Below, in pieces: positions 9,881 to 40,951 of a DNA stretch of 64,000 bases. The DNA is taken from assembly GCA_965267575.1 (NCBI GenBank), contig OZ254086.1, positions 736,001 through 800,000 on the forward strand, given 5' to 3'. Below the pieces are notes generated by a model. The model ran no database searches and was not told the origin of the DNA. It was given only the letters and a program-made list of their open reading frames with translations. Origin of the DNA: Calditrichales bacterium. Lineage in GTDB: Bacteria; Calditrichota; Calditrichia; Calditrichales; J004. The first letter of the stretch is position 1. Every line of letters begins with the position of its first letter. A program made the translations under genes and the position numbers.

Positions 9881-10572
9881 TAGTTTACCTTCGTCTGTTT
9901 AAAGTCGGCAAGGTGGGCGTTCAAAATCGGTAGCCATTTCGAGGTGCTCGAGCTGATAATATTGCCCACCGCCCGTGAAGTAATTGTGGCGCCGGTGATA
10001 GTGTCCACTTGCCAGGGCTCTGTTTTAGTACCGCTTTTTACCGATTCTACGGGATGTAAAAGCGTTTTTCCATCCGCAGCCAGGGAAACATCCAGTGCTT
10101 CAAAATTTTTCAGATATGCTTCATCTTTTTCGATTTTATCACCGAGGCCCGGTGTTTCGCGGCTTTCCAGCACCTGGAAGCCAATAACGGTTTGAGCCAG
10201 GTGGTCGTAGCCGTATAGAATGCGAATTACATCCTGAAAGCCCACGCCCGACGCTTCGATGGCAAAACCAACCAGGTCGCCTGCATCGTTATAGCCGGCA
10301 TATACCAGCGGCAGCTTATCCGTGTTGGGCCCGTTAAGCGGCTCAAAGCCGTTGCCGGTATAACCAAAAGTCTGTTTCGATTGCGCCGTTGGCAGCACGT
10401 TAAATATGGCTTTTTCCAGCGCCTCAGCCTTGTTTACGTTAATCACCGGAAGTGTAAACTGAAAAGTGAAAACAATCAGCAAAGAACACATAATGCCGAT
10501 GCCCACCATGGCCCTGAACATGTGCAGAGGGTTCCAGCTTTCCGCTGCCGGTTTCATCTCTTTATTTTCCAT
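9880..10572 (-). CDS. rnfG: Rnf electron transport complex subunit G (FMN-binding)
   Basis: N-terminal TM, ETPGLG, DTITGATITS flavinylation motif. Confidence 0.93.
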   Translation of the reverse strand: MENKEMKPAAESWNPLHMFRAMVGIGIMCSLLIVFTFQFTLPVINVNKAEALEKAIFNVLPTAQSKQTFGYTGNGFEPLNGPNTDKLPLVYAGYNDAGDLVGFAIEASGVGFQDVIRILYGYDHLAQTVIGFQVLESRETPGLGDKIEKDEAYLKNFEALDVSLAADGKTLLHPVESVKSGTKTEPWQVDTITGATITSRAVGNIISSSTSKWLPILNAHLADFKQTKVN

Positions 10573-26437: not shown

Positions 26438-28087
26438 TCAACGCAATAAAAGCAGTTTTTGGGTAGCAATAAACCCGCCGCTGCGCAGGTGCAGATAGTA
26501 AACACCGCTGGCAAGATCTTCGGCATTCAGCGAAAGGGTGTGCTCGCCCGCCGCCATGTCGCCGCTGTGCAGCTCCTTAACCCGGCTGCCGCGGTTGTCA
26601 AAAACGGATATACGGGTAAACTGCTGCCGCGGCAAAAAAAAACGTATCCGCGTTTGCGGGTTAAATGGATTGGGATAAGCGGGATAAAGCATGGTCTTGC
26701 GTGGTACCCGTGGAGTCTCTTTCTCCAGGGAAGTAACAAAGCGGTTGTTTAAGTTGTAGCGGGCAGACGCATCAATGAAGTGCAGACGCGCCCCTGCTAT
26801 GCCGCAATAGTTGGTGGGCTCGAAGCCGTTAACACCAAACCAGGCGGCGCCGTATGTCTCCAGAACGTAGAGAATTTTGTCGCTTTTAATGTCACCATTG
26901 GGCGATACCGCGATGCTGTTATTGTTATCGGCCCAGATAACGGTCAAGCCCGGGTTTTCTGTTGCCGCCCACATGCCGCCCACGAAGCGGTTTTCGTAGT
27001 AGTCATTATCATCATACAACTGTGGGATGATTACCGTACCGGGGATGGTGCTGTTACCCTCCTGCCAGCGCAGATTGCCGTTCCAGGCATTCAGCTCGCT
27101 GCCGGTCAGGCGGCGCACATCCACGTCTCCCAGCGCCGTTAGCGATGCATCCGATCCATTCAATACCGTATCAGGATAGGTAAACGTTGGCGGCTCAACC
27201 CAGGCATAGGCATCCATGTACTCTCCGCCATCCAACACCTGGCGGCTGTTCAAATCATACACGGCGCCGTGCACCAACTGGTCAAAACCGATATGTGTGA
27301 AAAGCACAGGCTTACCGGCTTCGGCTTTAACCACAGAGTTTTCCGTTTTATAAAGGATTGTGACCGTGCCGTGACCCCAGGCGGTTGCTCTGCCATCCGG
27401 CTCAATGCACAGGGCGGTTTTATCAGCCACACCTATGCCGGTGATGTTGTCGTCGCCATCGTCCTGGATGCGCTGGGCCAGCATAGGCACAAGTCGACCC
27501 ATCCGTCCGCGTGAGTGAAAATGCGAGTCGGTCAGGATATCCGGCAGGATGTGCAGAAAGTCATCTTCCAGGTGGATGTCAGGATGGTAGGCATTATAGG
27601 CCGCCTGCTCGGGATAAGAAGATCCGAATTTTGCATCGAACACCACGTCGCCCAAAACGGCCAGTCCGGCGCTGGTGCCGCCAATAGCGCCTCCTTTGCT
27701 GAATACATAATGGATGGCCTCTCCGACAAGCGTGCCTTTCCAGTTGCTCACATAATCATACTGGTCCCCGCCTTCCATAAAAATGCCGCCGGCTTCGATC
27801 AGCTTTTTGTAAACCGAAGAATCATTGGCCTCCGTGCGGTTGCTTATCTGCAGGGCTTCGGCATCGGACGCGCCCAGCGATTTGAAATAGGACGGGTACC
27901 AGTCGCTGGCACTGCTGGCATCAATGTTGATGATCTTGCCGGAATCGGCCTGCTGCACAAACCAGCCATACGGTATGTCCGACCAGCTGCCATAATCCTC
28001 CGCGCCGCCGCCAACCAGCAAAGCCGAACCCTGCGCCCATAGCTGAGATGTGCCCAATAAAGCGATCAGAAATAATTTTTTAAACAT
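26438..28087 (-). CDS. Secreted cyanophycinase-like (peptidase S51) protein with C-terminal sorting domain
   Basis: Start re-placed to ATG 28087 (MFKKLFLIALLG signal peptide); LVGGG, MEGGDQ, GGTSAG, DSHF..RGRMGRL; YPNPFNP CTD. Confidence 0.82.
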   Translation of the reverse strand: MFKKLFLIALLGTSQLWAQGSALLVGGGAEDYGSWSDIPYGWFVQQADSGKIINIDASSASDWYPSYFKSLGASDAEALQISNRTEANDSSVYKKLIEAGGIFMEGGDQYDYVSNWKGTLVGEAIHYVFSKGGAIGGTSAGLAVLGDVVFDAKFGSSYPEQAAYNAYHPDIHLEDDFLHILPDILTDSHFHSRGRMGRLVPMLAQRIQDDGDDNITGIGVADKTALCIEPDGRATAWGHGTVTILYKTENSVVKAEAGKPVLFTHIGFDQLVHGAVYDLNSRQVLDGGEYMDAYAWVEPPTFTYPDTVLNGSDASLTALGDVDVRRLTGSELNAWNGNLRWQEGNSTIPGTVIIPQLYDDNDYYENRFVGGMWAATENPGLTVIWADNNNSIAVSPNGDIKSDKILYVLETYGAAWFGVNGFEPTNYCGIAGARLHFIDASARYNLNNRFVTSLEKETPRVPRKTMLYPAYPNPFNPQTRIRFFLPRQQFTRISVFDNRGSRVKELHSGDMAAGEHTLSLNAEDLASGVYYLHLRSGGFIATQKLLLLR

Positions 28088-28112
28088 AACTATACTCCAC
28101 TTCAACGATCTC

Positions 28113-29558
28113 TCAATTCCCCGTGACGCGGTAAACGGGCAGCGCCCGGCCCGGCAACGCCAGTTCGCGGAAAGGCTGCCACTCGTAAATGCCGTACAAC
28201 ATCGCCGGTTCCAGCAGCAGCGGCACGCGCAGGGCATGCGGCTGGCTCATGGGCACGTAAAGGCTGCCTTTGCCAAAAGTGATCAGGCTGTCTTTTTGCA
28301 GGGTGACAATCTGCCGGCCGTCATAGCGATTATAGATAGCATCGAACTCTGTTTCCAGGCGCTCAAAACGGGCGGCTTGTACGAGAATGTCACGTTCACC
28401 TTCCAAGACTTCAAACTGCAGCGCCTGCCGCTCCAGCCAGGCTTTAAAAACGGCGGCAGCCGAAGCATCGATGAGGTAGCCCTGCGGCGCGGGCACGCTG
28501 CGTTTTATCACGCGTGTTTTCATAAAGTTGGGCGTGGCGATTGTTTTGACGGTCCCGGAAGCTTTATCGATCACCTTCACATCATACAGCGTCGGGCCCG
28601 TGTTGGCCCAAAAGTAGTTAACCGGAATAAAAGCGGGTGGTTGCGCGGCGTGGGCCTGTTCAATTAAGCGACGTTCTTCCGCGCGGTGCGTATCATCATG
28701 CAGCAGCCTGTCAAAGATCGCCAGGTAGGCCTCAACGCGTTTTATCAGGTCAGCCTGCGGATCGGGCGCGTTACGCTTAATACCGGATTCGATGATAAAT
28801 GACAGACCGCCGTATGCCCCAAGGCCGTTACGTCCGTCATCAGCCTCCAACGTGCTAAAACGCTGTTCCTGCAGCGGCGGCACCCCGCCCACATAGTAGC
28901 GCGTATAGTTGATTCCTTTCGCGGCCATGAACGGTTCTATCTTTTCACACCAGCGCTGGCCGGCCATGAACAGTTCTTTGCTGTAGAGCGGATTATTGGC
29001 GCAATCCATCATAATGATCGGCCACTCGCTCCAGCCATTTTCGGCATAGTCGCGGCTATCGCGCCCAAACTCGTGGCAGTCCACGGCCACGTGCGGCAAG
29101 ATGCGGCGAAACGTTTCGTGCAATATGCGCGTCTCCGGCTGTTGCATCACGATATGGTCGCGGTTCAGATCGGCATCGTTGGCATTGCGCCGGCGGTCGG
29201 CACTGTTGCCGTCCGGGTTAACCGAGGGGATGATCCACAGCTCCACGTCATCCGGTAAATAGCCGGGGTCCGTGGCGATTTTTTTAATAAGCGCCGCCAG
29301 GGCGTCTTTGCCGGCGTGTTCGTTGCCGTGCTGCTGGCCGTATAAAAATACCTTCCATGGTTGTTTGTCCCGGCCTCCATGATACAGATGTACAAGAAAC
29401 AGCGGATTGTTATTTACGCTGTATCCGGCGGTATCCACGCTGATAAACGATTGTCGGGCCGCCGTATTCAGGACTTCGCCGATCTGTTCATTGCTGAGCG
29501 TTTGTGCCTGGATATGGCAAAAGGCCAGAAATATAAACAGGAAAAGTTGTCTCATCAT
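28113..29558 (-). CDS. Exported M14-family zinc carboxypeptidase/amidase
   Basis: Signal peptide; QQHGNE (HxxE), NPDG, RRNAN..DLNRD, DCHE. Confidence 0.85.
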   Translation of the reverse strand: MMRQLFLFIFLAFCHIQAQTLSNEQIGEVLNTAARQSFISVDTAGYSVNNNPLFLVHLYHGGRDKQPWKVFLYGQQHGNEHAGKDALAALIKKIATDPGYLPDDVELWIIPSVNPDGNSADRRRNANDADLNRDHIVMQQPETRILHETFRRILPHVAVDCHEFGRDSRDYAENGWSEWPIIMMDCANNPLYSKELFMAGQRWCEKIEPFMAAKGINYTRYYVGGVPPLQEQRFSTLEADDGRNGLGAYGGLSFIIESGIKRNAPDPQADLIKRVEAYLAIFDRLLHDDTHRAEERRLIEQAHAAQPPAFIPVNYFWANTGPTLYDVKVIDKASGTVKTIATPNFMKTRVIKRSVPAPQGYLIDASAAAVFKAWLERQALQFEVLEGERDILVQAARFERLETEFDAIYNRYDGRQIVTLQKDSLITFGKGSLYVPMSQPHALRVPLLLEPAMLYGIYEWQPFRELALPGRALPVYRVTGN

Positions 29559-30961
29559 CAGCTCCCCACAATGGTTTCATCTTCGCGTACGCGCGGGGCT
29601 ATGGCGATACCGGTGAACCCGTAAAGTATGGCAAAAACAATCCCAAGATAACACATAAAAGACCAGGGTGCGTAGCTTAAAACCGGTACTCCCAGCGTTG
29701 CCGACATAAAAATGCCGGCCATGCTCCACGGTACCAGCGGCACCACCACCGTGCCGGAGTCTTCCGTGGTACGTGACAGGTTTTTAGCAGCCAGATTGCG
29801 GGCGCGAAAGGCCGGCGCAAACAGCTCGCCCGGGATCAATATGGCCAAAAAAGAGCTGCCGGTAATAAAAGCGATTACCGCGCTGCCCAGCGCCGAACTG
29901 GTTATCAGCATACCGACGGATGAAACAAATTGCAGCAGTTTATCGAGAATGGCCTGCAGCATGCCCGTGGCCTGCACGATGCCGGCAAAGGCAAAAGCGC
30001 AAAAAGCGATCAGCGTAACATCCATCATGCTCATCATGCCGCCGCGGTTAAGCAGGGTATCGGTCAGCTCAAAGCCGGTACTGATGCTGTAGCCGTTGGT
30101 CAGCGCGTTGAACACGTCCACAAAGCCCATGCCCTGGATGGTGCCGGCAAAAACCACGGCAAGCGCCGTCGCGGCAATCATGCCCGGGATGGTGGGCAGC
30201 TTGCGCACGGCAAAAAATAGGATCAGCACGGGCGGCGTAAACAACCACCAGCTAAACGTAAAATTGGCCGAGAGGTTATCCAGAATCAGATTGATCTGAT
30301 CGACCGGCAGAACGCGGTCGCCGTAGCCCAGGCCGATGAAAAAGTAGATAACCATGCCGATAAGCCAGGCCGGGACGGTTGTCCACAAAAGATGGCGGAT
30401 ATGGTCGAACAGGTTGCTGCCCGCGGCAATGGGCGCCAGGTTGGTCGTATCGGAAAAAGGCGACAGTTTATCGCCAAAATAGGCGCCGGTGATAATGGCG
30501 CCGGCAGCAGGGGCCAATGGAATACCCAGCCCCTGGGCTATGCCGATAAAGGCAATCCCGATAGTGCCTACGGTGCCCCACGAGGTACCTATAAAAAGCG
30601 AAACCACGCTGCACACCAGGCAGGCGGTGATCAGAAAATAGTCCGGTGAGATAAGCTTAAGGCCGTACCAGATCAGCATGGGGATGGTGCCGCTGGCAAT
30701 CCATGAACTGATAAGGAAGCCGACGCAGATGACGATCAGCATGGCCGGCAGCGCCTGGCGCACTGATTCGACAATACCCTGTTCCATCTGCTTCCAGCTA
30801 TAGCCCAGCCACAGCCCGATGAGCCCGGCAACAGCGGCGGCGGCAATAAGCAGCACTTCGGCGCGGACACGGAAAAAGCCGTAACCTACACCCAGCAGCA
30901 AGCCCATCACCAGTAAGGGAATCAGGCTAAGGCCAAAAGACGGTTTGCGTGGTTCTTTCAA
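29558..30961 (-). CDS. nhaC: NhaC-family antiporter (likely organic/amino-acid substrate)
   Basis: WIASGTIP, GTSWGTVGT.G, GAYFGDKLSPFSDTTN, RGGMMSM, SRTTEDSGT, PW; start moved to TTG 30961 because the annotated extension runs through a terminator hairpin. Confidence 0.85.
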   Translation of the reverse strand: MKEPRKPSFGLSLIPLLVMGLLLGVGYGFFRVRAEVLLIAAAAVAGLIGLWLGYSWKQMEQGIVESVRQALPAMLIVICVGFLISSWIASGTIPMLIWYGLKLISPDYFLITACLVCSVVSLFIGTSWGTVGTIGIAFIGIAQGLGIPLAPAAGAIITGAYFGDKLSPFSDTTNLAPIAAGSNLFDHIRHLLWTTVPAWLIGMVIYFFIGLGYGDRVLPVDQINLILDNLSANFTFSWWLFTPPVLILFFAVRKLPTIPGMIAATALAVVFAGTIQGMGFVDVFNALTNGYSISTGFELTDTLLNRGGMMSMMDVTLIAFCAFAFAGIVQATGMLQAILDKLLQFVSSVGMLITSSALGSAVIAFITGSSFLAILIPGELFAPAFRARNLAAKNLSRTTEDSGTVVVPLVPWSMAGIFMSATLGVPVLSYAPWSFMCYLGIVFAILYGFTGIAIAPRVREDETIVGS

Positions 30962-30979
30962 AACGGTTTTCCTAAAGTT

Positions 30980-31009
30980 AAAAAGGCGGGGAAAAGACCC
31001 CGCCTTTTT
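30980..31009. terminator. Intra-operon intrinsic terminator
   Basis: Perfect 12-bp inverted repeat AAAAAGGCGGGG-AAAAGA-CCCCGCCTTTTT, 24 nt past the stop of 31034-32368. Confidence 0.8.
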
Positions 31010-31033
31010 GTCCAACTCCATTTGTCGTGTTCC

Positions 31034-32368
31034 TTACTTAACGAGCAGCATTTTGCCGCTAAGACTGATGCCGGAGCCGTGCAGGCGGTAAAAGTAGACA
31101 CCTGACGAAACGTTGTTGCCATTATCGTCCAGGCCATTCCATACAGCTTGGTTGTCGCCGGCCGGTGTGCTGCCGGAAACAAGCGTCCGTACTCTCTTGC
31201 CGCTGATGTCATAGACAGCCAGCGTAATATCGCGTGCTTTGTCCAGTGAGAATTCGATAGTGGTACTGGGGTTGAACGGGTTCGGGTAATTTTTGTCCAG
31301 ACGAACCGTTTGCGGCGCGCGGATCACTTCATCTTCCAGACCGGTAATCAGACCGGTAATGTGAACAATACCTTCAGATTCCGTGGAAACCCAGATTTCG
31401 TTGTCCTTGATCTCCAGATGGGTCAAAACATCCTGCGGGATCTTGTCGGCTGTTGAAGCTGAATCGTATTGCGTAAATGAGCCGTCATCCTGCAGGGCGA
31501 TCAACCCGCCGCCGTTTGTGGCCAGCCACAAGGTGCCGTTTACATCCGCTTCCAGATCGTTGATGTCGTATTGCAGAGCATCGCTCCACTCGGAATCATA
31601 AAAGGTCACGGTACCATTGTTTTCGATTTTTACCAGTTCCAGGTTGCCATTGATCGGCACCCACAGATTGTCGTTGGGATCGATGGTCATGGCGTAGGTC
31701 CAGTCACCTTCGATTTCCGAGATCAGGTTCCAGTCGCCGTTGGTGTCGCGGTAGCTTACACCGTACCAGGTCAAAACCCAAAGCTGACCCTGGGTGTCTT
31801 CACGCAGGTCATAAATCTCGGGGCGGGCATCCTGCTGTGTAAGCGTATAACCCAAATCAGCCATGGACCAGCCTTCCCAGTTTTCGCCATGGTCGCTGCT
31901 TACCCAAACGCGGGCGTTTTCACGATCGTCTTCACGCTGGCTGATGTAGATGTTGCCTTTAGAGTCAGTTTCAACAGTACGTGTGTATTTGTCAAAAGTA
32001 AAATCCACGTAGCCGCTGGTGCCATCGCTCTTTTTGTAAGACACGCCGTAGTGTGTGCACATCCACATAGTGTTTTCGTCATCGACGGCCATGTAGAATA
32101 CGCGGTCCTCCAGATCACTAAGTCCAAGATCGCTCTGCTCCCAGATCGTCCAGCCGGAAAGGTCAGCGGCCAGCGTGGAAACAGTCGCCACACCGGTGGC
32201 AGCGTCTTTTTGTCCGCCAAACCAGATATCGCCGTCAAGATCAAAATCGATGCAGTAAATGGCGTTGTATGGTAATTCGCTGTTATCGTGCGTATACAGC
32301 GTGTATTCCTGCGCCGACGAAAAAGCGGCGAAAAGGAACAAACTTAAAACGGTCACTAAACGGGTCAT
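31034..32368 (-). CDS. Secreted beta-propeller protein with FlgD-Ig C-terminal sorting domain
   Basis: Signal peptide; repeated D..G.(I/L)W...GV blades (two-component-regulator-propeller-like); NYPNPFNPST...WNGLDDNG...SGVYFYRL. Confidence 0.8.
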   Translation of the reverse strand: MTRLVTVLSLFLFAAFSSAQEYTLYTHDNSELPYNAIYCIDFDLDGDIWFGGQKDAATGVATVSTLAADLSGWTIWEQSDLGLSDLEDRVFYMAVDDENTMWMCTHYGVSYKKSDGTSGYVDFTFDKYTRTVETDSKGNIYISQREDDRENARVWVSSDHGENWEGWSMADLGYTLTQQDARPEIYDLREDTQGQLWVLTWYGVSYRDTNGDWNLISEIEGDWTYAMTIDPNDNLWVPINGNLELVKIENNGTVTFYDSEWSDALQYDINDLEADVNGTLWLATNGGGLIALQDDGSFTQYDSASTADKIPQDVLTHLEIKDNEIWVSTESEGIVHITGLITGLEDEVIRAPQTVRLDKNYPNPFNPSTTIEFSLDKARDITLAVYDISGKRVRTLVSGSTPAGDNQAVWNGLDDNGNNVSSGVYFYRLHGSGISLSGKMLLVK

Positions 32369-32393
32369 AATGACTCCTCCTTATTATGAAACT

Positions 32394-33389
32394 TTACAGT
32401 GAAATGCCAAGAGCAAAGCGGTGCACATCACCAAGCACACCGTGTTCGGCAAAAGCGTAATCCAGCCTCGAAGCGGCGCCAAACATGCCAAGCGCCAGTC
32501 CCCCGCCAAAAGAGAATTCTCCGATATCGTAGTTCATTTTGTAGGCGGCGCGCAAAAAGGCCAGGTTGTTAAGGCCGTATTCCGTGGCAAAAGTGATGCG
32601 TTGTTCATTATCGCTGGGCACGTTTACATCGGCCATTACAAGCCAGGTCGATGATTCAAACTCCATCGGTTCAAAGGCCACGCCCATCTGAAAAATCTGT
32701 GGCAGGCGAAACTCCTTGCTCAGCCTCTCAATACGCGGATTGTTGTCCGTGCTGATCGCTTTTTCTTCGGCGATCTTTCTGTCTATATCATCACCGGAGA
32801 AACTGAGTTTACCGGCCACGTTGCGGATGGCCATACCCAGGCGGATGTTGAGAAATTCCGCTTTGTAAACGGAGCCCACGTCAAAAGCAACCTGGTCGGC
32901 TGTCTCATTCCAGATAAATTCCTGCACGTATTTAACCGTAATGCCAAAAGAAAAGCTGGAAGTAAGCGAGCGCGCGTAGGTGGCGCCAATGGCAATGTCG
33001 CCGGCGCTGTAATATTCGCCGGTGCCGTCCTGATCAAATACGGTTGTTATCTCCTCATCATCCATGTAGAACGAGGTTACCGAAAGCCCAATGCTGCCCA
33101 GGTCTTGCCCCAGGTTATGAACGATGCCGCCATAAGCCAGCTTGGTATCCAGGAACCAGTCGGTGTGCGCCAGAAGCAGATCGGTATTCTCTACCTGCGC
33201 GGCCCCGGCAGGATTCCAGTAGAGGGCTTCGGCGCCGTTGGTAAGGGCCGTAAGCGCGCCACCCAGAGAAGCGCCGCGCGGGTCTACGGCAATCTGCAGA
33301 AAGTTTGCGCCGCTTTGCCCCAGGTTACCCTGCGCCAACAGGGGTGTGCCTGCGCAAAAGACGAGTAATAAAATTACAATACGTTTCAT
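32394..33389 (-). CDS. PorV/PorQ-family outer-membrane beta-barrel
   Basis: ANFLQI.VDPR...LGGA, ALYWNPAG, HT.W, FDVG, C-terminal LDYA...LG.VHRF. Confidence 0.82.
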   Translation of the reverse strand: MKRIVILLLVFCAGTPLLAQGNLGQSGANFLQIAVDPRGASLGGALTALTNGAEALYWNPAGAAQVENTDLLLAHTDWFLDTKLAYGGIVHNLGQDLGSIGLSVTSFYMDDEEITTVFDQDGTGEYYSAGDIAIGATYARSLTSSFSFGITVKYVQEFIWNETADQVAFDVGSVYKAEFLNIRLGMAIRNVAGKLSFSGDDIDRKIAEEKAISTDNNPRIERLSKEFRLPQIFQMGVAFEPMEFESSTWLVMADVNVPSDNEQRITFATEYGLNNLAFLRAAYKMNYDIGEFSFGGGLALGMFGAASRLDYAFAEHGVLGDVHRFALGISL

Positions 33390-33407
33390 GGGCTTTTCAC
33401 TCCTGTT

Positions 33408-35288
33408 TTATCGAATTATGGCAAAACGGCCTACTTTTTCGCCGAGGTCCGATTTGACGTGGTAAAAATAGATGCCCGATACAACCGGTCGCTGCTCGGA
33501 CGACAACATGTTCCACTCCAGCCGGCCGGAAGGACCGCTATGCTGCAGCGTCTGTACCAGATCGCCGTCGACCGTGTATATTTTTACGGTGGATTGCGCC
33601 GGCAGGTTGGTAAAGCTGACGTTGCGTACCGGCTCGCCGAAGGCGTAATTGCCCAGGCGCTCTTCGTCCCAGCGCGCCGAGATAACAAAAGGATTGGGCA
33701 CAACGCGTATCTTGTCCATATCCGCTTTGGTTTGCGCAGGATTGCTAACGGGTTGCACGATAGCGGCATTCTTTACGTTATCAATATTATCCAGCGAGCC
33801 AAGCCGGTTGGATTCCTCGATCAGTCCGGCGGCATTCTCGCGGTATGCGGATACATTATAGATGTAGCTGAATCCATTATAAACGGCGTCGGTGTCCTGG
33901 TACTGGTAGGCGTTTTCAACATAAACGGAATCACCGGTATAAGTTGCTGGGATGGTATCGAGCGCTTCCCATTGCTTTAGTGCCACCTGGTCCGTGGTGC
34001 GATAGACAATGTAGCCTTGCAGATCGGGGTCATCCAGTTCCACCTGGTTGTCCCAGGAAAGATCAACGGCGTGGTCATTGGCGGTGGCTTTTACGGTTGG
34101 CGCGCCCACAACCGGAATATTAAAGTCAGGATAGTAATCCCAGAGCTGATCGATATTAGCCATAAGGTCTTCGATGTTGTCACCTACGGAAACAGCGACC
34201 CAGAACTCGGCACGTTCACCGGGCTGGATATCAAAGGGGCCGTTGGCAATATATGCGACCATGGCGCCGCCGACTAGATTGCCGTCTTCATCGGTGATGC
34301 GTGTCGTCTCGGGGTCGTCGTAACGGGTCCCGTTAATCGGATTGTCGCCAAGATGGAAATAATCGCTTACTTCCACATCCGGGTGATCGTGGAACCAGGT
34401 GGTATCCGAGCGCATCAGGTTGTAGCTGAGGCTGTCCCAGAAAGCGGCATTAACGCGCACTTCATCCACGGCCACGTCAATCCAGTGCCAGTCGGTTATA
34501 CCGTTATTATTGGGCGTCTGCAGAAAGGTGATGCCAACCGGGAAGGGGTAATTGTTTTCGTCGTTGATCCATTCGTCGCTGACACCATCGGAATCATAAA
34601 AATAGATCGTTTCACGGTCTTTGTCGAAACCGATGCAATCATCCGCCCATTCGCGGGCGTCGTTGGCGTTTCCGCCCACATCGATGTCAGAGTAGAAGTT
34701 AAAATACATATCTTGCAGCGGCCGGGCAGAGGCGTTTTCGATTTCAAATTTCAAAACGATAAAACGATCCGCTGTCGGAACACCCCAGGCGTAGGTGGTC
34801 TGGTGAACGCGAATGCCCATCAGCGCGTCCTGCTCGCCATTATTGGCATAGCGCCAGTTGGTGGAATCGCTGAAAACACAATAGCTGTCCTGCTGCGACA
34901 AAATGATCGGATTGCCGTTTTCATCCTGCACGGGCCATCCCCATGTGGGCCAGGTGCTGGGATCATCGCTGATGGCGATTTCTGCATTGCCGGCATCGTA
35001 ACCGCCGATGGCGTCAAATTCCTCGTAGCGGCCGTCTGCAGCACTGATGACATTGTAGGGAACGCCGATCATCAGGCATTGGCGGTACATGGCGATATGC
35101 CCGCTGTTGATCGGGTATTCCAGCGTTTTTTCAAATTGCCCGCCATAGGGATAAAACTGGCCGATATTGGTTGTAAACCATCCCAGACGCCCCACGTTAT
35201 GCGTGGCGAAGGCACGGTCTTCAAGCCCGGCATAAGAAAAGGCAACGGAAAGCAAAATTGCCGAAATGAGCGTTTTAAAAAGCTTCAA
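33408..35288 (-). CDS. Secreted acidic protein with FN3-like domain and VPNP-type C-terminal sorting domain
   Basis: Signal peptide (TTG start, AGGAGG RBS); DIDVG...DDCIGFD motif; V.LSW...GY.VYR; IRVVPNPF...IYTVDGDLV...SGIYFYHV. Confidence 0.75.
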   Translation of the reverse strand: MKLFKTLISAILLSVAFSYAGLEDRAFATHNVGRLGWFTTNIGQFYPYGGQFEKTLEYPINSGHIAMYRQCLMIGVPYNVISAADGRYEEFDAIGGYDAGNAEIAISDDPSTWPTWGWPVQDENGNPIILSQQDSYCVFSDSTNWRYANNGEQDALMGIRVHQTTYAWGVPTADRFIVLKFEIENASARPLQDMYFNFYSDIDVGGNANDAREWADDCIGFDKDRETIYFYDSDGVSDEWINDENNYPFPVGITFLQTPNNNGITDWHWIDVAVDEVRVNAAFWDSLSYNLMRSDTTWFHDHPDVEVSDYFHLGDNPINGTRYDDPETTRITDEDGNLVGGAMVAYIANGPFDIQPGERAEFWVAVSVGDNIEDLMANIDQLWDYYPDFNIPVVGAPTVKATANDHAVDLSWDNQVELDDPDLQGYIVYRTTDQVALKQWEALDTIPATYTGDSVYVENAYQYQDTDAVYNGFSYIYNVSAYRENAAGLIEESNRLGSLDNIDNVKNAAIVQPVSNPAQTKADMDKIRVVPNPFVISARWDEERLGNYAFGEPVRNVSFTNLPAQSTVKIYTVDGDLVQTLQHSGPSGRLEWNMLSSEQRPVVSGIYFYHVKSDLGEKVGRFAIIR

Positions 35289-35306
35289 GAGCGCCTCCTT
35301 ATGGAA

Positions 35307-37823
35307 TTAATAGTCAAACCTGAAACCAAGGTAGATTAAACGGGGACTACCGTAGTTAAGCGGGTTGTTGGCCCAGTCGCGCGTACGGCCTTCGATGTAA
35401 TCCGGTTGGCCGGTAAACGGATCGACATAGAGCACGTTTTCGCGGTCGGTCAGATTGAACACCTCGAGATAACCGGTCAGGTCAAAGGCATCCATTTGAA
35501 ATTTGCGATCCAGCTTCAGATCAATAGTCCAGTACTCCGGCAGGCGGCGATTGTTTACTTCGTAAGGTTCCACAATACTGCGCGTGCCTTTGGTATAAGG
35601 CAGGCCGCTCCCATACTGGAAAAGCAATGTGGTGCGTATATTCTCCAGCAAGGCGAAACCGCCAACTTCAGGCCCTTCATTTTCCAGGAAACGGTAGCTG
35701 AGGTAGCCGTTTATGGTATGGCGCTGGTCAAAATCCAGCGGGAAAAATTTCAGGCTCTGGCGGTTGGCCTCTTCCGAGCCAACGCGCTCCAGCGGACCGG
35801 AGCTGCTGCCTTCGGCAACAGAGTAGGTGTAGCTGAGCTCGCCAAACAGGTTTTTTCCGCGCGACTTCTTGATCTGCAGTTCGAGACCGTTGTTGTAGGC
35901 GAAATCCTCATTCACAAGCGCCGTCCATGTTTCCCAGTAAGGCACGCCGTCGCGGGATACATCGCCGGCAAAGAAGGTGCGCGCACCGGTCAGGTTAGTG
36001 ATCTTTTTGCTATAAACGGACACATTAACCAGGTAATCTTCCATAAACTGGTGGCTCAGGCCAAACTCATACGCCACTGTTTTTTCGGGCTTCAGGTTGG
36101 GATTGCCAAAACGGCCGTTTCCGGCGCGCAGATTCATCACGATGTTTTGATCGTAATTGTCATCGCTCAGCGCTTTATAGATAAACTGGTATTCCGGGCG
36201 CTGAAAATAGTGGCCGTAGCCAAAATGAAATACGGTCTTTTCGCTAACCGGGTAACTAATACCAAGCCGCGGACTGAGCTGCGTGTGCGTTTCCGCGGAT
36301 TTAAAGTTTTCCGTATTGTTTTGGAAAGCGTCATAGGGTGATTCCCAGAAATCGGTATTGGGATTGGTGAGATCAAAACGCAATCCGGCGCTTAACAGAA
36401 TATTTGAGAAATTAATTTTATCCTGGATATATGCGGAAAACTCATAAGGCTCTACACTGTAATTATCCAGAGTGTGGTCATCATAATAAGGCGATACGAT
36501 CAGATATTCGTCCAGGTAATGCTGCCTTACTTCAACGCCGGCTTTTATCTCATTATAGTTGTTGGCCTGCCACAAACCATCTGCCTTAATACCAAAAGTA
36601 AGCTGATCCGTCTCTTCAAAACTGCTGACGGTGGCGGAGGTATAAAACTCTTTATTATTGTCCAATGTATAGGCCGGGGTTAAATCTCCGGGTCCGTATT
36701 CGCCGGAATCATAATGGAACGAATTGGCATAGGCCGCAGCCGTATAATACATGTTATCGGACAACGTATGGGTCATTGAAAAATTGACCATGCCCGAGTT
36801 TGTGCGTGGTTCGGGAAAATACTGCTCTTCGATATATTTAAAGCTGTGGCGATAACTTTTGCGCTGGCGGTCGGAGATGTTGCCGGATACGGACAGCTTA
36901 ATGTTATTCATATGCCGCGATGTGATCTTGCCAAATATGTTGTATTGCGTGTTGTAGCCCCAGGGCAAATAGGTATCGCGGTCATCAAAACTGCCGGAAA
37001 CGAAAAAGCCCAGATTGGGGTCGAACAGCGAGCCACTGAAATTGGAGCGCACAATAGTTCTGTTGTAATCGGTACTGGCCTGTTCAAAACCTGCTGCCGT
37101 CGATCTCACATCCACATCAAAACCGAACTCGCCGCGCCCTTCCTGCGTGGTGATGTTGATAATCCCGCTCATGGCGTTACCGTATTCGGCGCTGTACGTA
37201 CCGCTGATCACCTGCATTTCGCTGATGATATCTTTATTAATAATCTCCGTGGAGTTGATTTCGCTGAACAGCGGGTTAACCATAGGCACACCGTCCACGT
37301 AGTAGACAACCTCTCCGGAGCGGCCGCCGCGGAAATGTAACCCTCCGCTGTTTACCACTCCGGGCTGTATGGCCAGTACTTCATTGACACTATTGGCGGG
37401 CACCAGCTCCATCTCCTCGGAAGAGAGGCTGCGCGTGGTGGCTGAAATATCTTTTTCAACAAGCGGGCGCTCGGCCACAACGGTGACCGCTTCACTCTCC
37501 AGAACACCGGAAGAAAGTGCAATATCCACCACGGCAATACGGTTACTGCGCACGCGCACATCGGCGATTGTCTTGCTGACATAGCCCACGTAATCAATTT
37601 GCAGGTCATATGTACCGGGCGGCACCTGGAGAATGACAAAATAGCCTTCGATGTCTGTTGCGGCGCCCTGCTTCAGTTCCTCGATGTAAACATTGGCGCC
37701 GGGCAGCACTTCCCCGGTCTGGGCATCTGTGACCACACCGGATATTTTTCCGAAGTTGCCGGCGTGGGCCGCAACGCAAGCAATTAAAAACCATAAAGCT
37801 GCTCGCAATGAAATCTTTAGCAT
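35307..37823 (-). CDS. TonB-dependent receptor with N-terminal carboxypeptidase-regulatory-like domain
   Basis: GKISG.VTDA.TGE.LPGANV, RGGRSGE..YYVDG plug, SAEYGNAMSG, SPRLG, GNPNLKPE, C-terminal PR...LG.RFDY. Confidence 0.9.
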   Translation of the reverse strand: MLKISLRAALWFLIACVAAHAGNFGKISGVVTDAQTGEVLPGANVYIEELKQGAATDIEGYFVILQVPPGTYDLQIDYVGYVSKTIADVRVRSNRIAVVDIALSSGVLESEAVTVVAERPLVEKDISATTRSLSSEEMELVPANSVNEVLAIQPGVVNSGGLHFRGGRSGEVVYYVDGVPMVNPLFSEINSTEIINKDIISEMQVISGTYSAEYGNAMSGIINITTQEGRGEFGFDVDVRSTAAGFEQASTDYNRTIVRSNFSGSLFDPNLGFFVSGSFDDRDTYLPWGYNTQYNIFGKITSRHMNNIKLSVSGNISDRQRKSYRHSFKYIEEQYFPEPRTNSGMVNFSMTHTLSDNMYYTAAAYANSFHYDSGEYGPGDLTPAYTLDNNKEFYTSATVSSFEETDQLTFGIKADGLWQANNYNEIKAGVEVRQHYLDEYLIVSPYYDDHTLDNYSVEPYEFSAYIQDKINFSNILLSAGLRFDLTNPNTDFWESPYDAFQNNTENFKSAETHTQLSPRLGISYPVSEKTVFHFGYGHYFQRPEYQFIYKALSDDNYDQNIVMNLRAGNGRFGNPNLKPEKTVAYEFGLSHQFMEDYLVNVSVYSKKITNLTGARTFFAGDVSRDGVPYWETWTALVNEDFAYNNGLELQIKKSRGKNLFGELSYTYSVAEGSSSGPLERVGSEEANRQSLKFFPLDFDQRHTINGYLSYRFLENEGPEVGGFALLENIRTTLLFQYGSGLPYTKGTRSIVEPYEVNNRRLPEYWTIDLKLDRKFQMDAFDLTGYLEVFNLTDRENVLYVDPFTGQPDYIEGRTRDWANNPLNYGSPRLIYLGFRFDY

Positions 37824-37848
37824 AAGGCTCTCCGCGTGAAGGTGAATA

Positions 37849-38081
37849 CGAAAATAAAGTTACACAAAGATATATTCACGTAATTTTTTTGTCAAGTTGA
37901 ATTTTAAGAATCGGCATCCCATTAACTGGAAAAGGCACGTAAATTACTGTTAATATTAGATTTAATGCCATATATATAAATTTATGCATCTGATAATCGT
38001 GTTATTTTTCTGCTTATTTCCACAAATTGAACCAAATGAGTAATGAAAAAAAAGCATATTGTTTTTGTAATTATTTTTTCA
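37849..38081. promoter_or_regulatory. Divergent promoter region with three copies of a YGTAA-N6-TKTCR box (candidate RpiR operators)
   Basis: 37849-37864 (reverse complement TGTAACTTTATTTTCG), 37879-37894 CGTAATTTTTTTGTCA, 38066-38081 TGTAATTATTTTTTCA. Confidence 0.45.
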
Positions 38082-38119
38082 TATGATTAGAAAAATGATT
38101 TTTAAGTTTCAGGCTTATC

Positions 38120-39241
38120 ATGACAACTTCTCAAGATAGTATTATTGAACTGTTCCTGCAGTTGGTAGCCATAGATGCCGTTTCCAAAGCGGAAAAACCT
38201 GTCGCCGATTTTATCCGCAATTATCTTAATAAAAGAGAGATTGAAGTTTTTGAAGACAAAAGCGGATCGATCGTCGGTGGTAACAGCGGCAACATCATAG
38301 CACGGGTAGGAAATGGCACGGCGCCCAAAATAGCCTTCACCGCACACATGGATACGGTTAAATCCACCAGGGGCATTAAACCGCAGCAGGTAGACGGTAT
38401 GATACGCACAGACGGTCATACGATTCTAGGTGCGGACAACCGGGCAGGCATCGCCATAATCCTGCACAGCATCGATCGTCTTCTGCAATCGCGCAAAGAA
38501 TTCCCTTCCTTTGAAATAATTTTTACAATCGGCGAAGAAACGGGCCTGTTCGGTTCCATGAATTTGGACCTGAGCATCCTGCAATCGCGCATTGCCTATA
38601 CGCTGGATTCTTCCGCCGATCCCGGCAAATATGTGCTGGCCGCTCCCTCCGCCTGGGAGTTTAAAATCCGTCTTACGGGAAAAGGCAGCCATGCGGCCGT
38701 AAATCCCGGTGCCGGCATAAACGCAATCACCATGGCAAGAGATCTTTTAGGCGAAATAAATACAGGCCAGGTCGACCCGCATACCACCGTTAATGTCGGT
38801 GTCATTAAAGGCGGCGAAGCCAATAACATTGTGCCCGAGTCGGTCTTTATGAGCGGCGAAGTACGCTCTTTCCGTGAAGAGAGTCTCAAAAAATATCTGA
38901 AACAGATTGAAGAGTGCTGCCGCCAGATCAGCGGACGTTACAACGGGCGTTGCGGGTATGAGCAGGAACGGGCTTTCCCCGGATTTCATCTGGACAGTAA
39001 CACGCCCGCCATTCGCCTGCTGGAAGAAGCTTACCAGACTAACAACCTGACACCCGATCCGCTGGTTTATCACGGCGCTTCCGATGCCAATATTCTCAAC
39101 GGCCGTGGCATCACCTGTATCGATGTCGGTATCGGCGCCAAGAACCCGCACAGCTTTGACGAATACATAGCGGTTGCAGATCTGGTTAAAATGTCCGATG
39201 TTGTGCTCACTTTGGTACAAAATCAGGCATGTTTAGAATGA
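38120..39241 (+). CDS. M20-family metallopeptidase (peptidase T-like), cytoplasmic
   Basis: AHMDTV, LGADNRAG, GEETG, GSHAA, SDAN, PHSFDE; no signal peptide. Confidence 0.88.
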   Translation: MTTSQDSIIELFLQLVAIDAVSKAEKPVADFIRNYLNKREIEVFEDKSGSIVGGNSGNIIARVGNGTAPKIAFTAHMDTVKSTRGIKPQQVDGMIRTDGHTILGADNRAGIAIILHSIDRLLQSRKEFPSFEIIFTIGEETGLFGSMNLDLSILQSRIAYTLDSSADPGKYVLAAPSAWEFKIRLTGKGSHAAVNPGAGINAITMARDLLGEINTGQVDPHTTVNVGVIKGGEANNIVPESVFMSGEVRSFREESLKKYLKQIEECCRQISGRYNGRCGYEQERAFPGFHLDSNTPAIRLLEEAYQTNNLTPDPLVYHGASDANILNGRGITCIDVGIGAKNPHSFDEYIAVADLVKMSDVVLTLVQNQACLE

Positions 39242-40086
39242 AGGACATCCAGCAAACCATTGTTGAAAAGGCGGGGAGTTTCTCCAAAAACCAGAAAGCG
39301 CTGGCCAACTACCTGCTGGAAAACCTGGAAACGGTGCCCCTGCTTTCGGTGAACGAAGTGGCCCGCAATGTAGGATGCAGCACGGCCACCGTTGTACGCT
39401 TTACCCGCGTTCTTGGTTTTGACGGCTACCTCGATTTTCGCAATCACCTGCTGAAACTGCTTAAAACAAAACTTTCACCACTGGAACGATACAAGGAAAC
39501 TCTGTCCCAAAAAGCGGAGATGCCCAATACCCTGGAAAAGGTCTCCGATCAGGTGATCGAGAATCTTAAATACAGTGTAAAACACAACGATCTGAATGAA
39601 TTCAAACAAATCGTTGAACATATACGCAAGGCGGAAAATATCTTTTGCGCGGGGCTGGGCATCAGCAAACACATGTCCGAGATCCTGACTTACCTGCTGA
39701 AACTGTACATGAAAAAAGCATTTACGCTGACCAACGATTCACCTTCTTTTCAGGAGCAGGTAATTCTGCTAAACCCAAAAGATCTGCTTTTTGTGTTCAG
39801 CTTTCCGCCCTACAGCCGGCCGACGGTGGACCTGGCCAGGGAAGCCAGCGAGATGGGCATCACGGTCATCGCCTTCACAGATAAGCGCACAGCACCCGTA
39901 ATGGAGTTTTGCGAACACGCCCTGCTGGCGCGCAGTGACAATATTCTGTTTACAAACTCACTCGGCGCCATTGCCGCCCTGATGAACGCGCTCATCACCG
40001 AGCTGGCCTTGTGCGAAGAAACCACGGTGATCAGCGGCCTGGAAAAAGTGGAAAACTATCTTAACGACAAGCGCTACTTTTATTAA
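39238..40086 (+). CDS. MurR/RpiR-family transcriptional regulator
   Basis: HTH S.ATVVRFTRVLGFDGY plus SIS domain (GLGIS, SFPPYS, FTD); ATG 39238 overlaps the M20 stop (alternative start 39229). Confidence 0.9.
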   Translation: MKDIQQTIVEKAGSFSKNQKALANYLLENLETVPLLSVNEVARNVGCSTATVVRFTRVLGFDGYLDFRNHLLKLLKTKLSPLERYKETLSQKAEMPNTLEKVSDQVIENLKYSVKHNDLNEFKQIVEHIRKAENIFCAGLGISKHMSEILTYLLKLYMKKAFTLTNDSPSFQEQVILLNPKDLLFVFSFPPYSRPTVDLAREASEMGITVIAFTDKRTAPVMEFCEHALLARSDNILFTNSLGAIAALMNALITELALCEETTVISGLEKVENYLNDKRYFY

Positions 40087-40109
40087 ACACAAACCGGTTC
40101 AGGTATAAC

Positions 40110-40922
40110 ATGAAGATTTTCTGGTTAATTCTGCTATCTCTCACCCTGCTTTTTTGCACCCAACAACAACCCGAACCCACAAAGGGCAACCTGCTGATTA
40201 TCGGTGGTGGCAAGCGCCCGGATTACGTGATGAAAAAATTCGTTGATCTGGCCGGTGGCCCTGAGGCGCGTATCGCAATTATCCCCACGGCAAGCTCATA
40301 CTACCTGGAATCGGGTAAGCGCTATAAAGAGACATTTCTGGAGCTGGGCGCTGCAGAAGCCGCTTCCTTTAATATTCTTACCACGGAAATTGCCAACAGC
40401 GACAGCATTGCGGAAGCGCTTAAAAGCTACGACGGCTTTTTCTTTGGCGGCGGTAACCAGAACAAGCTGACAGAATTTATGCTGGGCACGCGGGCATTGC
40501 AGATCATTAAAGATGCTCATGCCAATGGCGCAGCGATTGGCGGTACCAGCGCGGGCGCGGCCATTATGAGCGATATCATGATTACCGGTGACGGCAACTG
40601 GGAGATTGCCGTTCGCGACAGCGTTGTGACAACGCAGGGTTTCGGCTTTGTGCAAAACACCGTCATCGATCAGCACTTTTTCGCGCGGCGGCGCTTTAAC
40701 CGGCTGCTGGCCGTATGTGTGCAAAACAGGGTAAACGGCCTGGGCATAGACGAGAGCACGGCCATTTGGGTAAAGCCGGATAATACAATGGAAGTAATTG
40801 GCGAGAGCATTGTCATCGCCCTGGATACGCAGCAGGCGCGCTGGCCGGAAAAAAGCGATTCGCTGTTAACGGCCCGAGATCTCAGGCTGGGCATATACAA
40901 ACACGGCGACACACTTCCCTAA
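40110..40922 (+). CDS. Cyanophycinase (peptidase S51), probable lipoprotein
   Basis: Lipobox-like LLFC; IIGGG, IPTAS, GGGNQ, GGTSAGA (Ser), DQHF..RRRFNRL (His), GIDESTA (Glu). Confidence 0.88.
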   Translation: MKIFWLILLSLTLLFCTQQQPEPTKGNLLIIGGGKRPDYVMKKFVDLAGGPEARIAIIPTASSYYLESGKRYKETFLELGAAEAASFNILTTEIANSDSIAEALKSYDGFFFGGGNQNKLTEFMLGTRALQIIKDAHANGAAIGGTSAGAAIMSDIMITGDGNWEIAVRDSVVTTQGFGFVQNTVIDQHFFARRRFNRLLAVCVQNRVNGLGIDESTAIWVKPDNTMEVIGESIVIALDTQQARWPEKSDSLLTARDLRLGIYKHGDTLP

Positions 40923-40926
40923 AAAG

Positions 40927-40951
40927 AAAGGCGGCTCGCTGGCCGCCTTTT
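40927..40951. terminator. Bidirectional intrinsic terminator
   Basis: AAAGGCGGC-TCGCTG-GCCGCCTTTTT between convergent genes. Confidence 0.85.

Follow-up and report, generated by a model that had tools for sequence, protein, structure and literature searches.

We analyzed a window of 64,000 nucleotides from a Calditrichales bacterium of the phylum Calditrichota (GenBank assembly GCA_965267575.1, contig OZ254086.1; C1:736001-800000 of a single 4.73-Mb contig, in a genome that is 98% complete), which contains a candidate locus for the utilization of cyanophycin, the beta-Asp-Arg polymer. Gene families were assigned with Pfam and NCBIfam models, and bit scores are given against the cut-off of the respective model. 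A sequence-only reading of the same DNA had proposed a pair of divergent operons with ten genes. All ten are indeed present, at window positions 26438-40950, seven of them running leftward and three rightward. Neighboring genes are tightly packed, from a 1-nt overlap (between the M14 and NhaC genes) to a 25-nt gap in the leftward operon, and from a 13-nt overlap (between the M20 and RpiR genes) to a 23-nt gap in the rightward one.

The leftward operon, on the minus strand, starts with a TonB-dependent receptor (TBDR; 838 aa, 35307-37823) made of CarboxypepD_reg, Plug, and barrel domains. Next comes a 626-aa protein, here called X (33408-35288), with a VVPNPF motif and a C-terminal sorting-type tail, followed by an outer-membrane barrel of the PorV/PorQ family (331 aa, 32394-33389; NF033709). 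The remaining four genes encode a Reg_prop beta-propeller with a type-A C-terminal domain (CTD) of the type IX secretion system (T9SS; 31034-32368), an inner-membrane transporter of the NhaC family (487 aa, 29558-31021; TIGR00931), an exported M14 zinc carboxypeptidase (481 aa, 28113-29558), and an S51-family enzyme that also ends in a type-A T9SS CTD (S51-CTD; 26438-28087). The reading frame of this last gene is open to 28237, and translation most likely begins at MFKK (28087), 25 nt past the M14 stop, where the signal peptide starts. The rightward operon, on the plus strand, encodes a PepT-like M20 metallopeptidase (373 aa, 38120-39241), a regulator of the RpiR family with HTH_6 and SIS domains (39229-40086, overlapping the M20 gene by the 13 nt mentioned above), and a probable lipoprotein cyanophycinase of family S51 (270 aa, 40110-40922; TIGR02069). 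The M14 protein has a signal peptide by eye and the M20 protein has none, which agrees with the exported and cytoplasmic locations first proposed for them.

The two operons share an AT-rich divergent control region of 296 bp (37824-38119). On its minus strand, positions 37895-37867 read TTGACA-17-TATCTT, and TTTTCATATGA lies 41 nt 5' of the M20 start. Three related loci (L042, L043, and L044) carry an TTTTCATATAAT element 27-28 nt 5' of M20, and the sole element common to these loci and the window is TTTTCATAT(A/G)A, 27-41 nt before the M20 start. We rejected this element as an operator, as it resembles a -10 promoter element; neither repeats nor 9-mers shared with 11 promoter regions of relatives revealed a convincing operator in the spacer. 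At the other end of the rightward operon, between the lipoprotein S51 gene and the convergent next gene, a G+C-rich hairpin (40927-40950) with a stem of nine pairs, six of them GC, is followed by a T-rich tail and is likely the terminator of this operon.

Enzymes, regulator and carriers of the locus

The lipoprotein S51 enzyme passed the cyanophycinase equivalog model TIGR02069 with 169.5 bits (cut-off 126.6), scored only 29.6 bits against 156 on the PepE (dipeptidase E) model, and found its closest PDB entries among cyanophycinases, namely 7uqv (8e-37), 3en0 (3.5e-29), and 7uqw. Its GTSAG, DQHF, RRRFNR, and GIDE segments align with 3en0 and 7uqv, and the column of the GTSAG serine holds an alanine in the mutant entry 7uqw. 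Across 13 homologues, Q117, S147, H189, R193, R195, and R198 are invariant, and D187, Q188, and E215 are conserved in at least 90%. The residues reported as critical for cyanophycinase (Law et al. 2009) are the nucleophile Ser, the His, the Glu, three Arg, and the pocket Gln. The alignment with CphB and CphE covers the whole catalytic domain, with Ser/His/Glu and RxRxxR in place, and as in CphE the enzyme is exported; it differs from both in being a probable lipoprotein. The lipobox, LLFC, is atypical, and its Cys is the majority residue in the 13 aligned homologues. The protein is predicted to be periplasmic or membrane-anchored. In a Sporomusa genome (L101), a 41%-identical member of its clade is the direct neighbor of a gene for cyanophycin synthetase.

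The second enzyme, S51-CTD, likewise has the cyanophycinases 7uqv, 3en0, and 7uqw as its best PDB matches (E 2.6e-21 to 7e-20). GTSAG and an arginine-rich motif had been noted in both S51 proteins; GTSAG is found in both, and the motifs read DSHFHSRGRMGRL and DQHFFARRRFNRL. S51-CTD departs from CphB and CphE by an extra conserved domain of ~170 aa ahead of the tail, by the T9SS tail itself (Por_Secre_tail 35 bits; TIGR04183 35.4 bits, above the cut-off of 23), and by Q-to-S and E-to-D changes. It is predicted to be secreted or surface-attached. Both S51 proteins, as read from their sequences, are exported. Full-length homologues with 44-50% identity occur in four related loci (L037, L040, L042, and L047). 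A third, weak match to the family lies elsewhere in the genome (C1:1446807-1447058; 31 bits on the cyanophycinase model, in a 255-aa open reading frame (ORF)) and is probably a PepE-like protein.

As to cyanophycin, the organism would be a consumer and not a producer. Cyanophycin synthetase (cphA) is absent from the complete genome; the best match there scored 126 bits, far from the cut-off of 850, and spans only the Mur-ligase-like part of the model. The genome does encode a T9SS, with SprA, PorU, and one canonical PorV.

Two peptidases accompany the S51 enzymes. The M14 protein matches Peptidase_M14 (PF00246; 3.4e-12, 47 bits against 21.6) and consists of a catalytic domain and a C-terminal beta domain of ~170 aa. 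In 25 aligned homologues, H77, E80, R123, N132, R133, H162, and E257 are invariant; by analogy with carboxypeptidase A, these include the zinc-ligand HxxE, the Asn-Arg pair, the second His, and the catalytic Glu. A conserved Asp241 stands ~16 residues ahead of the catalytic Glu, past the point where the PDB profile alignments end; that it plays the role of Asp255 in carboxypeptidase B is a guess on our part. The protein had first been taken for a hydrolase of the CphZ/AotO type. This assignment fell: AstE_AspA_cat (PF24827) scored 19.1 bits, below its cut-off of 25, and none of the 26 PDB profile matches bears the name of CphZ or of a succinylglutamate desuccinylase. Instead, the predicted structure (pLDDT 93.2) is closest by Foldseek to the bacterial CCP-like M14 carboxypeptidases 4a37 and 4b6z (E 6e-15).

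The M20 protein missed the PepT-like model TIGR01883 by one bit (273.3 against 274.25), contains M20_dimer (6.4e-18), and matches the PDB entry 3gb0, "Peptidase T", at 1.6e-60. We consider it a candidate hydrolase of imported beta-Asp-Arg or short peptides. The roles that we assign to M20 and M14 follow from their position in the locus and from a chemical argument: beta-Asp-Arg can be viewed as an N-acyl-arginine with a free alpha-carboxylate, and its bond would be of the type cut by carboxypeptidases and by M20- and AstE-type deacylases. Enzymes of the N-acyl-amino-acid deacylase type would be plausible recruits for this bond.

The RpiR protein has clear HTH_6 (2.7e-15) and SIS (7.7e-18) domains and reached none of the NCBIfam equivalogs. 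RpiR/SIS regulators are known for phosphosugar ligands, and this raises a different explanation, whose murein-peptide form was already offered in the sequence-only reading, in which the locus takes up murein peptides or amino-sugar peptides under a MurR-like regulator, with an MpaA-like M14 acting on gamma-D-Glu-mDAP. The HTH_6 plus SIS architecture is that of RpiR/MurR, in which SIS usually binds sugar phosphates; the M14 protein also gives weak MpaA matches (PDB MpaA 2.7e-5 by profile), and a HAD phosphatase 1.4 kb downstream resembles MupP. All three proteins nevertheless fall far below the respective cut-offs (MpaA model NF007897, 19.2 bits against 157; MurR, 38 against 408; MupP, 98 against 359), and the structural neighbors of M14 are CCP-like rather than MpaA. 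Pfam and NCBIfam models detected no MurQ, AnmK, NagZ, AmpD, or LdcA-type gene in the locus, and the flanking HAD, YtoQ, and PIG-L genes have no counterpart in 95 related loci, and are thus not members of the locus. We regard a murein-peptide function as very improbable.

The NhaC-family protein passed TIGR00931 (504.8 bits against 370) and remained below the model of ArcD-type arginine/ornithine antiporters, NF052307 (350.7 against 650). Orthologues with 57-63% identity occur in L040, L042, L043, L044, and L065. It is a candidate importer of the breakdown products. The family assignment made at first reading stands; the generality of the carrier does not, as NhaC is peculiar to this subgroup and related loci mostly have a carrier of the YfcC/DcuC family (PF03606, 5.7e-110). 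The latter gene lies between RpiR and M20 in the closest relatives and is found, for example, at L040:3169-4569, at L062:10849-12243, and in 17 further related loci. In the window this slot is empty, since the M20 and RpiR genes overlap, and NhaC is therefore the only carrier of the locus. The two carriers appear to be distant relatives, given that YfcC also hits the Pfam family of NhaC, though less strongly (5e-11). The one close YfcC/DcuC-type carrier of the genome is encoded outside the locus, at C1:1732541-1733941.

The beta-propeller (Reg_prop 1.6e-15; Por_Secre_tail 30.9 bits; TIGR04183 34.2 bits, above 23) has two orthologues in L042 and others in L040, L065, and L096, and is a candidate accessory binding protein of the cell surface.

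The outer-membrane trio

The TBDR contains TonB_dep_Rec_b-barrel (1.4e-26), CarbopepD_reg_2 (4e-19), and Plug (7e-11) domains. On the SusC/RagA model TIGR04056 it scored 68 bits against 368, which places it outside the SusC/RagA subfamily, and no protein of the locus matches a SusD family in Pfam or NCBIfam. The idea of a scaffold without SusD is therefore borne out. The barrel was first named PorV. It does belong to the PorV/PorQ family (NF033709, PorV_fam, 180.4 bits against 90), and yet it is not the housekeeping PorV: it is below both the PorV (59.9 against 250) and the PorQ (79.9 against 220) equivalogs, and the canonical PorV is encoded elsewhere (C1:384497, 256 bits against 250). The locus barrel is thus a paralogue.

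Protein X is, as proposed, a VPNP-type surface protein with a sorting tail, although the tail is atypical, given that its TIGR04183 score of 21.4 bits is just below the cut-off of 23. No Pfam family was found above cut-off. The tail also matches the C-terminal part of the PorZ model (27 bits). The predicted structure (pLDDT 80.5) comprises an N-terminal beta-sandwich of ~390 aa, an FN3-like domain, and a C-terminal beta domain, and a Foldseek search against the PDB returned only generic FN3/beta-sandwich proteins (TMq <=0.31) and no informative fold relative. The Atlas clusters of X are named "hypothetical protein". We consider X a candidate substrate-binding partner of the TBDR. Three further tandem ORFs of the window (949, 669, and 673 aa; 56960-63804, minus strand; beyond them the window ends) have no Pfam family; over the C-terminal ~100 residues they are similar to the atypical tail of X (26% identity).

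We modeled the barrel (residues 20-331) together with the C-terminal part of X (residues 390-626), both supplied as alignments. The complex scored 0.84, and the best of three controls scored 0.00; 58 of 80 solved complexes reached this mark, as did 2 of 110 mismatched pairs. The runs had at least 87% of their contacts in common, the partner pLDDT was at least 80, and the contacts involve invariant residues on both sides (V530-P533, F622, and A623 of X; E113, T115, and T116 of the barrel). The model supports the view that the barrel holds the tail of X. A comparable arrangement is that of the PorV-PorU and PorQ-PorZ pairs of the T9SS attachment complex (NF033710, NF033711, and NF052228). In both cases, a FadL-like barrel of the PorV/PorQ family is predicted to hold a retained CTD; here, however, the barrel is a locus-specific paralogue and its partner is a nutrient-locus protein beside a TonB receptor, outside the secretion machinery.

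The trio of TBDR, X, and PorV-like barrel is not confined to the window. Searching the genome with the barrel by tblastn gave 16 further paralogous matches (17 with its own), of which nine immediately follow a TBDR-X pair or, once, a TBDR. The order TBDR, X-tail protein, PorV-like barrel recurs in eight more places and one variant, about ten in total with the window: C1 ~10-16k, 354-361k, 913-921k, 974-982k, 1292-1299k, 1300-1308k, 1705-1711k, 4055-4062k, and 4386-4394k. All ~10 modules are on the minus strand of the single contig. The other copies adjoin genes for GH3, GH16, and GHL10 hydrolases, CBM9/CBM11 proteins, an SSF carrier, and an S8 protease, as well as for lyases of the chondroitinase-B and heparinase-II/III types, and the genome holds one SusD_RagB match and no SusD-like_3 match. 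Because the trio recurs beside such varied enzymes in a genome with a single SusD match, it appears to be the organism's general scaffold for utilization loci. The window copy is the one tied to S51 enzymes.

In several respects the trio resembles the SusC/SusD cores of Bacteroidota: a CarboxypepD_reg TonB barrel followed by a surface-protein gene, situated among exported hydrolases, a carrier, and a regulator, with many paralogues per genome, whose accompanying enzymes vary. It differs in that the receptor is below the SusC/RagA model and SusD is missing from the locus, its partner being an all-beta protein with a T9SS-type tail and a PorV/PorQ-like barrel of its own.

Conservation of the gene set in and beyond the phylum

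To follow the gene set within the phylum, we sampled 86 species genomes, 17 of which encode a homologue of the lipoprotein S51 enzyme, and searched 15 regions of up to 20 kb, several of them cut by contig ends, with twelve window proteins. RpiR was found in 12 of the 15 regions, M20 in 10 (by the S51 gene), the TBDR and X in 8, the PorV-like barrel in 6, and full-length S51-CTD and NhaC in 4 each. For the wider comparison, a profile of the lipoprotein S51 enzyme confirmed at least 591 loci among 600 stretches from all phyla, and the best 80 were kept. In these 80 loci, YfcC occurs in 19, M20 in 16, RpiR in 15, X in 12, and the PorV-like barrel in 11; nine encode a T9SS-tailed protein of ~370 aa that has no Pfam family and is absent from the window locus. 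The recurrent operon order is M20, S51, YfcC, (small CTD protein), RpiR, TBDR, X, PorV-like barrel, seen in records from Ignavibacteriales/Melioribacteraceae (six), KSB1, Fidelibacterota, Chitinophagaceae, Caldithrix, Bacteroidetes, and one unclassified metagenome-assembled genome. Thus, the gene-neighborhood search suggested by the sequence-only reading recovered S51, M20, and RpiR together with the TBDR, X, and the PorV-like barrel in the phylum, in Ignavibacteriales, in KSB1, and in others. The arrangement is far beyond chance: at least 10 further genomes of the same phylum, and at least four more phyla, have these genes together.

The trio of these related loci falls into two subfamilies, with TBDR identities of 53-61% and ~36% and X proteins of ~630 and ~920 aa. 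This bears on the idea that the two halves of the locus are unrelated, a generic TBDR-X-PorV-like module having come to lie by chance beside an S51/M20/RpiR operon. Such a module does occur about ten times in the genome with very different enzyme sets, and M20-RpiR-S51 is found without the trio in the fetched stretches of some relatives, for example L037, L038/L061, and L044, some of them cut by contig ends. Each of the two trio subfamilies, however, is tied to S51/M20/YfcC/RpiR in at least five phyla, mostly in the same direction, and in the window itself S51-CTD, M14, and NhaC share the operon of the trio with gaps of no more than 25 nt. A chance association is accordingly a highly unlikely explanation.

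The M14 gene has a patchier distribution. The same type (48-50% identity) is present in two of the 15 regions of the phylum; homologues adjoin S51, M20, or YfcC genes in L037, L047, and L076, recur beside YfcC and M20 in an Acidobacteria record (43% identity), and occur in a Fidelibacterota record (49% identity). A second M14 type, 25-27% identical, was found at L039:3344-4891, L040:3-1298, and L106:12533-14083. It adjoins the lipoprotein S51 gene in two Calditrichota genomes (two of the 15 regions, 26-27% identity); a Rikenellaceae record has it beside YfcC, which there clusters with M20 and S51. With a second type in such loci, M14 has apparently been recruited to the locus type more than once.

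Of the wider loci, 63 lack M20, and in these we scanned the 94 immediate neighbors of S51 with Pfam, so that the IadA and IaaA counts are lower bounds. These loci hold at least one IaaA-type gene and at least one IadA-like amidohydrolase, a POT peptide carrier (one), cphA (one), and YfcC (two). Genes of the IaaA or IadA type, or YfcC, flank clade members in L078, L110, L125, and L068. TonB-type barrels were found in 15 of the M20-less loci, bringing the total to ~27 of the 80.

Proposed route, known systems and flanking genes

Overall, we think it probable that the window contains a locus resembling a polysaccharide utilization locus (PUL) that scavenges the cyanophycin of other microbes from outside the cell, or else a closely similar isopeptide polymer of beta-Asp-Arg/Lys, for an organism that does not produce it. 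The route drawn up in the sequence-only reading is supported in part by the equivalog-level S51 enzyme, the lack of cphA, the synteny, and the trio scaffold; it lost the CphZ role of M14, the claim of novelty, and a general role for NhaC. We infer every step of the route as follows. The T9SS would export S51-CTD and the propeller to the cell surface. X would also be exported, and its atypical CTD would keep it on the surface, docked in the PorV/PorQ-like barrel beside the TBDR, in the substrate-binding role held by SusD and the surface glycan-binding proteins of Bacteroidota. Surface S51-CTD would shorten the polymer, and the TBDR would take up oligomers or dipeptides. In the periplasm, the lipoprotein cyanophycinase would cut these to beta-Asp-Arg, from which the exported M14 may free arginine, the alpha-carboxylate being free. 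The NhaC-family carrier would move the products over the inner membrane, a step for which most related loci also have a YfcC-type carrier. Cytoplasmic M20 would complete hydrolysis, in the position that IadA, IaaA, or CphZ holds in described systems, and RpiR would control both operons from their common spacer.

Several observations weigh against this reading. S51-CTD, though a family member (Peptidase_S51 1e-08), scored 103.7 bits on TIGR02069, under the cut-off of 126.6. It keeps the Ser, the His, the three Arg, and the pocket Gln, and has DSH in place of DQH; at the acidic position it has D, with E in three relatives and I in L040 (the residues after GIG vary in its family as AD, DE, DD, and SI, the last in L040). 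The nearest solved relatives of M20 are PepT-like tripeptidases and those of M14 are CCP-like carboxypeptidases, and neither protein is in a family shown to cleave beta-Asp-Arg. IadA is absent from the genome (best match 30 bits against 331), and two Asparaginase_2 (IaaA-type) genes outside the window (C1:3354457 and C1:4352570) could carry out the beta-Asp-Arg step instead. YfcC, which related loci conserve more than any other transporter, is missing from this one, and RpiR is among the most conserved members in spite of the sugar-phosphate ligands of its family. Furthermore, it is not evident why a TonB receptor would be needed, since the dipeptides released by cyanophycinase are small enough for porins; only the import of oligomers would account for it. 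Solved structures of PorV-CTD complexes exist, so the success of the barrel-X model shows likeness to PorV-tail binding and is no proof for this particular pair. Finally, M28 and penicillin-amidase genes lie near S51 in three Flavobacterium records. There, a gene of the penicillin-amidase family directly adjoins S51 (L127, L133, and L139); as the other immediate neighbor, L127 and L139 have M28, and L133 has an AsnC-type regulator. Since this context differs, the S51 clade perhaps has no single substrate.

Some of these points fit a system that scavenges other peptides, either aspartate-rich or isoaspartyl, or proteinaceous debris at large; the S51 proteins would then be Asp-specific peptidases, M14 and M20 would trim alpha-peptides, and the TBDR would import oligopeptides as RagAB does. 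Dipeptidase E belongs to the S51 family, S51-CTD is below the cyanophycinase cut-off, and the tripeptidase-like M20, an M14 with a generic carboxypeptidase fold and a full catalytic set, and the Flavobacterium clade members beside M28 and penicillin-amidase genes are all compatible with this explanation. We nevertheless judge it unlikely. The lipoprotein S51 enzyme scores 169.5 bits as a cyanophycinase and 29.6 as PepE, the three arginines and the Gln/Asp pocket residues reported as critical (Law et al. 2009) are retained, and a member of its clade adjoins cphA. In addition, a general peptide system would hardly retain two S51 enzymes as its only endo- and exopeptidases across phyla.

Cyanophycin scavenging is thus the reading that we carry over to the comparison with published systems. 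The sequence-only reading knew of no description of such a gene set, a suggestion of novelty that is not supported: a cyanophycin utilization locus (2017) and the adjacency of a TonB receptor and a cyanophycinase (2012) are already in print. The 2017 study by Ben Hania reportedly describes a transport complex homologous to polysaccharide utilization loci. PMC10206079 credits Ben Hania 2017 with the "cyanophycin utilization locus", in which cyanophycinase genes are joined by iadA and a transporter, and it describes enzymes of the IaaA or IadA type and such transporters in cyanophycin-scavenging clusters. According to PMC6243061, Salinivirga cyanobacteriivorans L21-Spi-D4 and a Balneolaeota isolate pair a plain S51 enzyme with a Por-tailed one, in differing gene contexts. 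As far as these texts describe it, the L21-Spi-D4 locus resembles ours in serving a non-producer that scavenges cyanophycin with cyanophycinases, a transporter, and a final hydrolase, and in pairing a plain S51 with one that has a Por-secretion tail. It uses iadA, whereas M20 and M14 are in our locus and the genome has no IadA; our locus further differs in its trio of non-SusC TBDR, X, and PorV/PorQ-like barrel without SusD, in its RpiR regulator, and in its NhaC carrier. Set beside the printed locus as cited in PMC10206079, the window likewise has S51 genes clustered with a transporter in a genome without cphA, and no iadA or iaaA in the cluster, where M20 takes that place.

PMC9974463 establishes CphZ, which derives from the AstE/AspA group, and argues that scavenging is widespread. 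The CphZ/AotO and aot system of Pseudomonas, as given there, follows the same logic: a non-producer takes up beta-Asp-Arg, which a dedicated zinc hydrolase then cleaves; our M14, by contrast, is no CphZ, the cytoplasmic candidate is M20, and the aot transporter is an ABC system where ours is NhaC (YfcC in relatives). In Citromicrobium sp. JLT1363, a TonB transporter lies next to a cyanophycinase, and from this adjacency cyanophycin was proposed as its substrate (PMC3400609, 2012). The ~27 of 80 S51 loci with a TonB-type barrel nearby are similar in this respect, although the proteobacterial case is a two-gene adjacency without X or a PorV-like barrel, T9SS-tailed enzymes, M20, M14, or RpiR.

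Within the searchable literature, outside which subscription papers and supplements lie, we found no link between cyanophycinase and type IX secretion, none between cyanophycinase and RpiR, and no description of the TBDR/PorV-like module. The M20/M14/NhaC/RpiR content and the SusD-less uptake module anchored by a PorV-like barrel are, in searchable print, undescribed. Whether they amount to something more general is a tentative matter: we consider it possible, and on balance doubtful, that the trio is a new capture machine of the Fibrobacterota-Chlorobiota-Bacteroidota (FCB) group that replaces SusC/SusD, that M20 and perhaps M14 are new families of beta-Asp-Arg hydrolases, and that RpiR has a non-sugar ligand, all three together. 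If true, the machine would consist of a T9SS-exported binding protein that a private PorQ-like barrel holds by its uncleaved tail next to the TonB-dependent transporter, in phyla other than Bacteroidota, and the window copy would be specialized for a peptide polymer.

Cyanophycin is a widespread store of nitrogen, carbon, and energy, and its harvest by non-producers is known from few proteobacterial and Bacteroidetes systems. Calditrichota, Ignavibacteriales, KSB1, Fidelibacterota, and some Bacteroidota retain the locus type analyzed here, which provides candidates for the final hydrolase of loci without IadA, IaaA, or CphZ (M20, possibly M14), for the inner-membrane carrier (YfcC or NhaC), and for an outer-membrane capture device distinct from SusC/SusD. 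As the same trio is found in glycan-degrading loci of this genome, understanding a copy with a chemically simple, purchasable substrate would open the nutrient-uptake biology of these poorly studied phyla.

The flanks of the locus are housekeeping genes unrelated to it. Upstream lie Rnf, a gene similar to pyruvate:ferredoxin oxidoreductase (PFOR), AsnB, and NadE; on the downstream side are genes for a PIG-L deacetylase, a member of the glyoxalase family, and an RND efflux pump. For the convergent 542-aa CTD protein, the matches in relatives are limited to its tail. A DUF3667 membrane protein (25481-26386, minus strand) is encoded 51 nt downstream of the S51-CTD gene. Two Flavobacterium records (L127:13978-14247 and L139:13905-14627) have a homologue at a distance of ~3 kb from S51, and it is absent from the remaining 93 of the 95 related loci, for which reason its proximity to S51 is possibly a coincidence. 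Farther upstream, the genes of the Rnf complex (8649-12939 and 18027-18890, minus strand) enclose the PFOR-like gene (13027-17958, minus strand), which encodes a fused protein of 1644 aa with POR_N, POR, PFOR_II, 4Fe-4S, and TPP_enzyme_C domains. Lastly, a 358-aa protein near the start of the window (3498-4571, plus strand) combines an SBP_bac_3/Lig_chan-Glu_bd solute-binding domain with a ligand-gated/potassium-channel pore and resembles a prokaryotic channel of the glutamate-receptor type.

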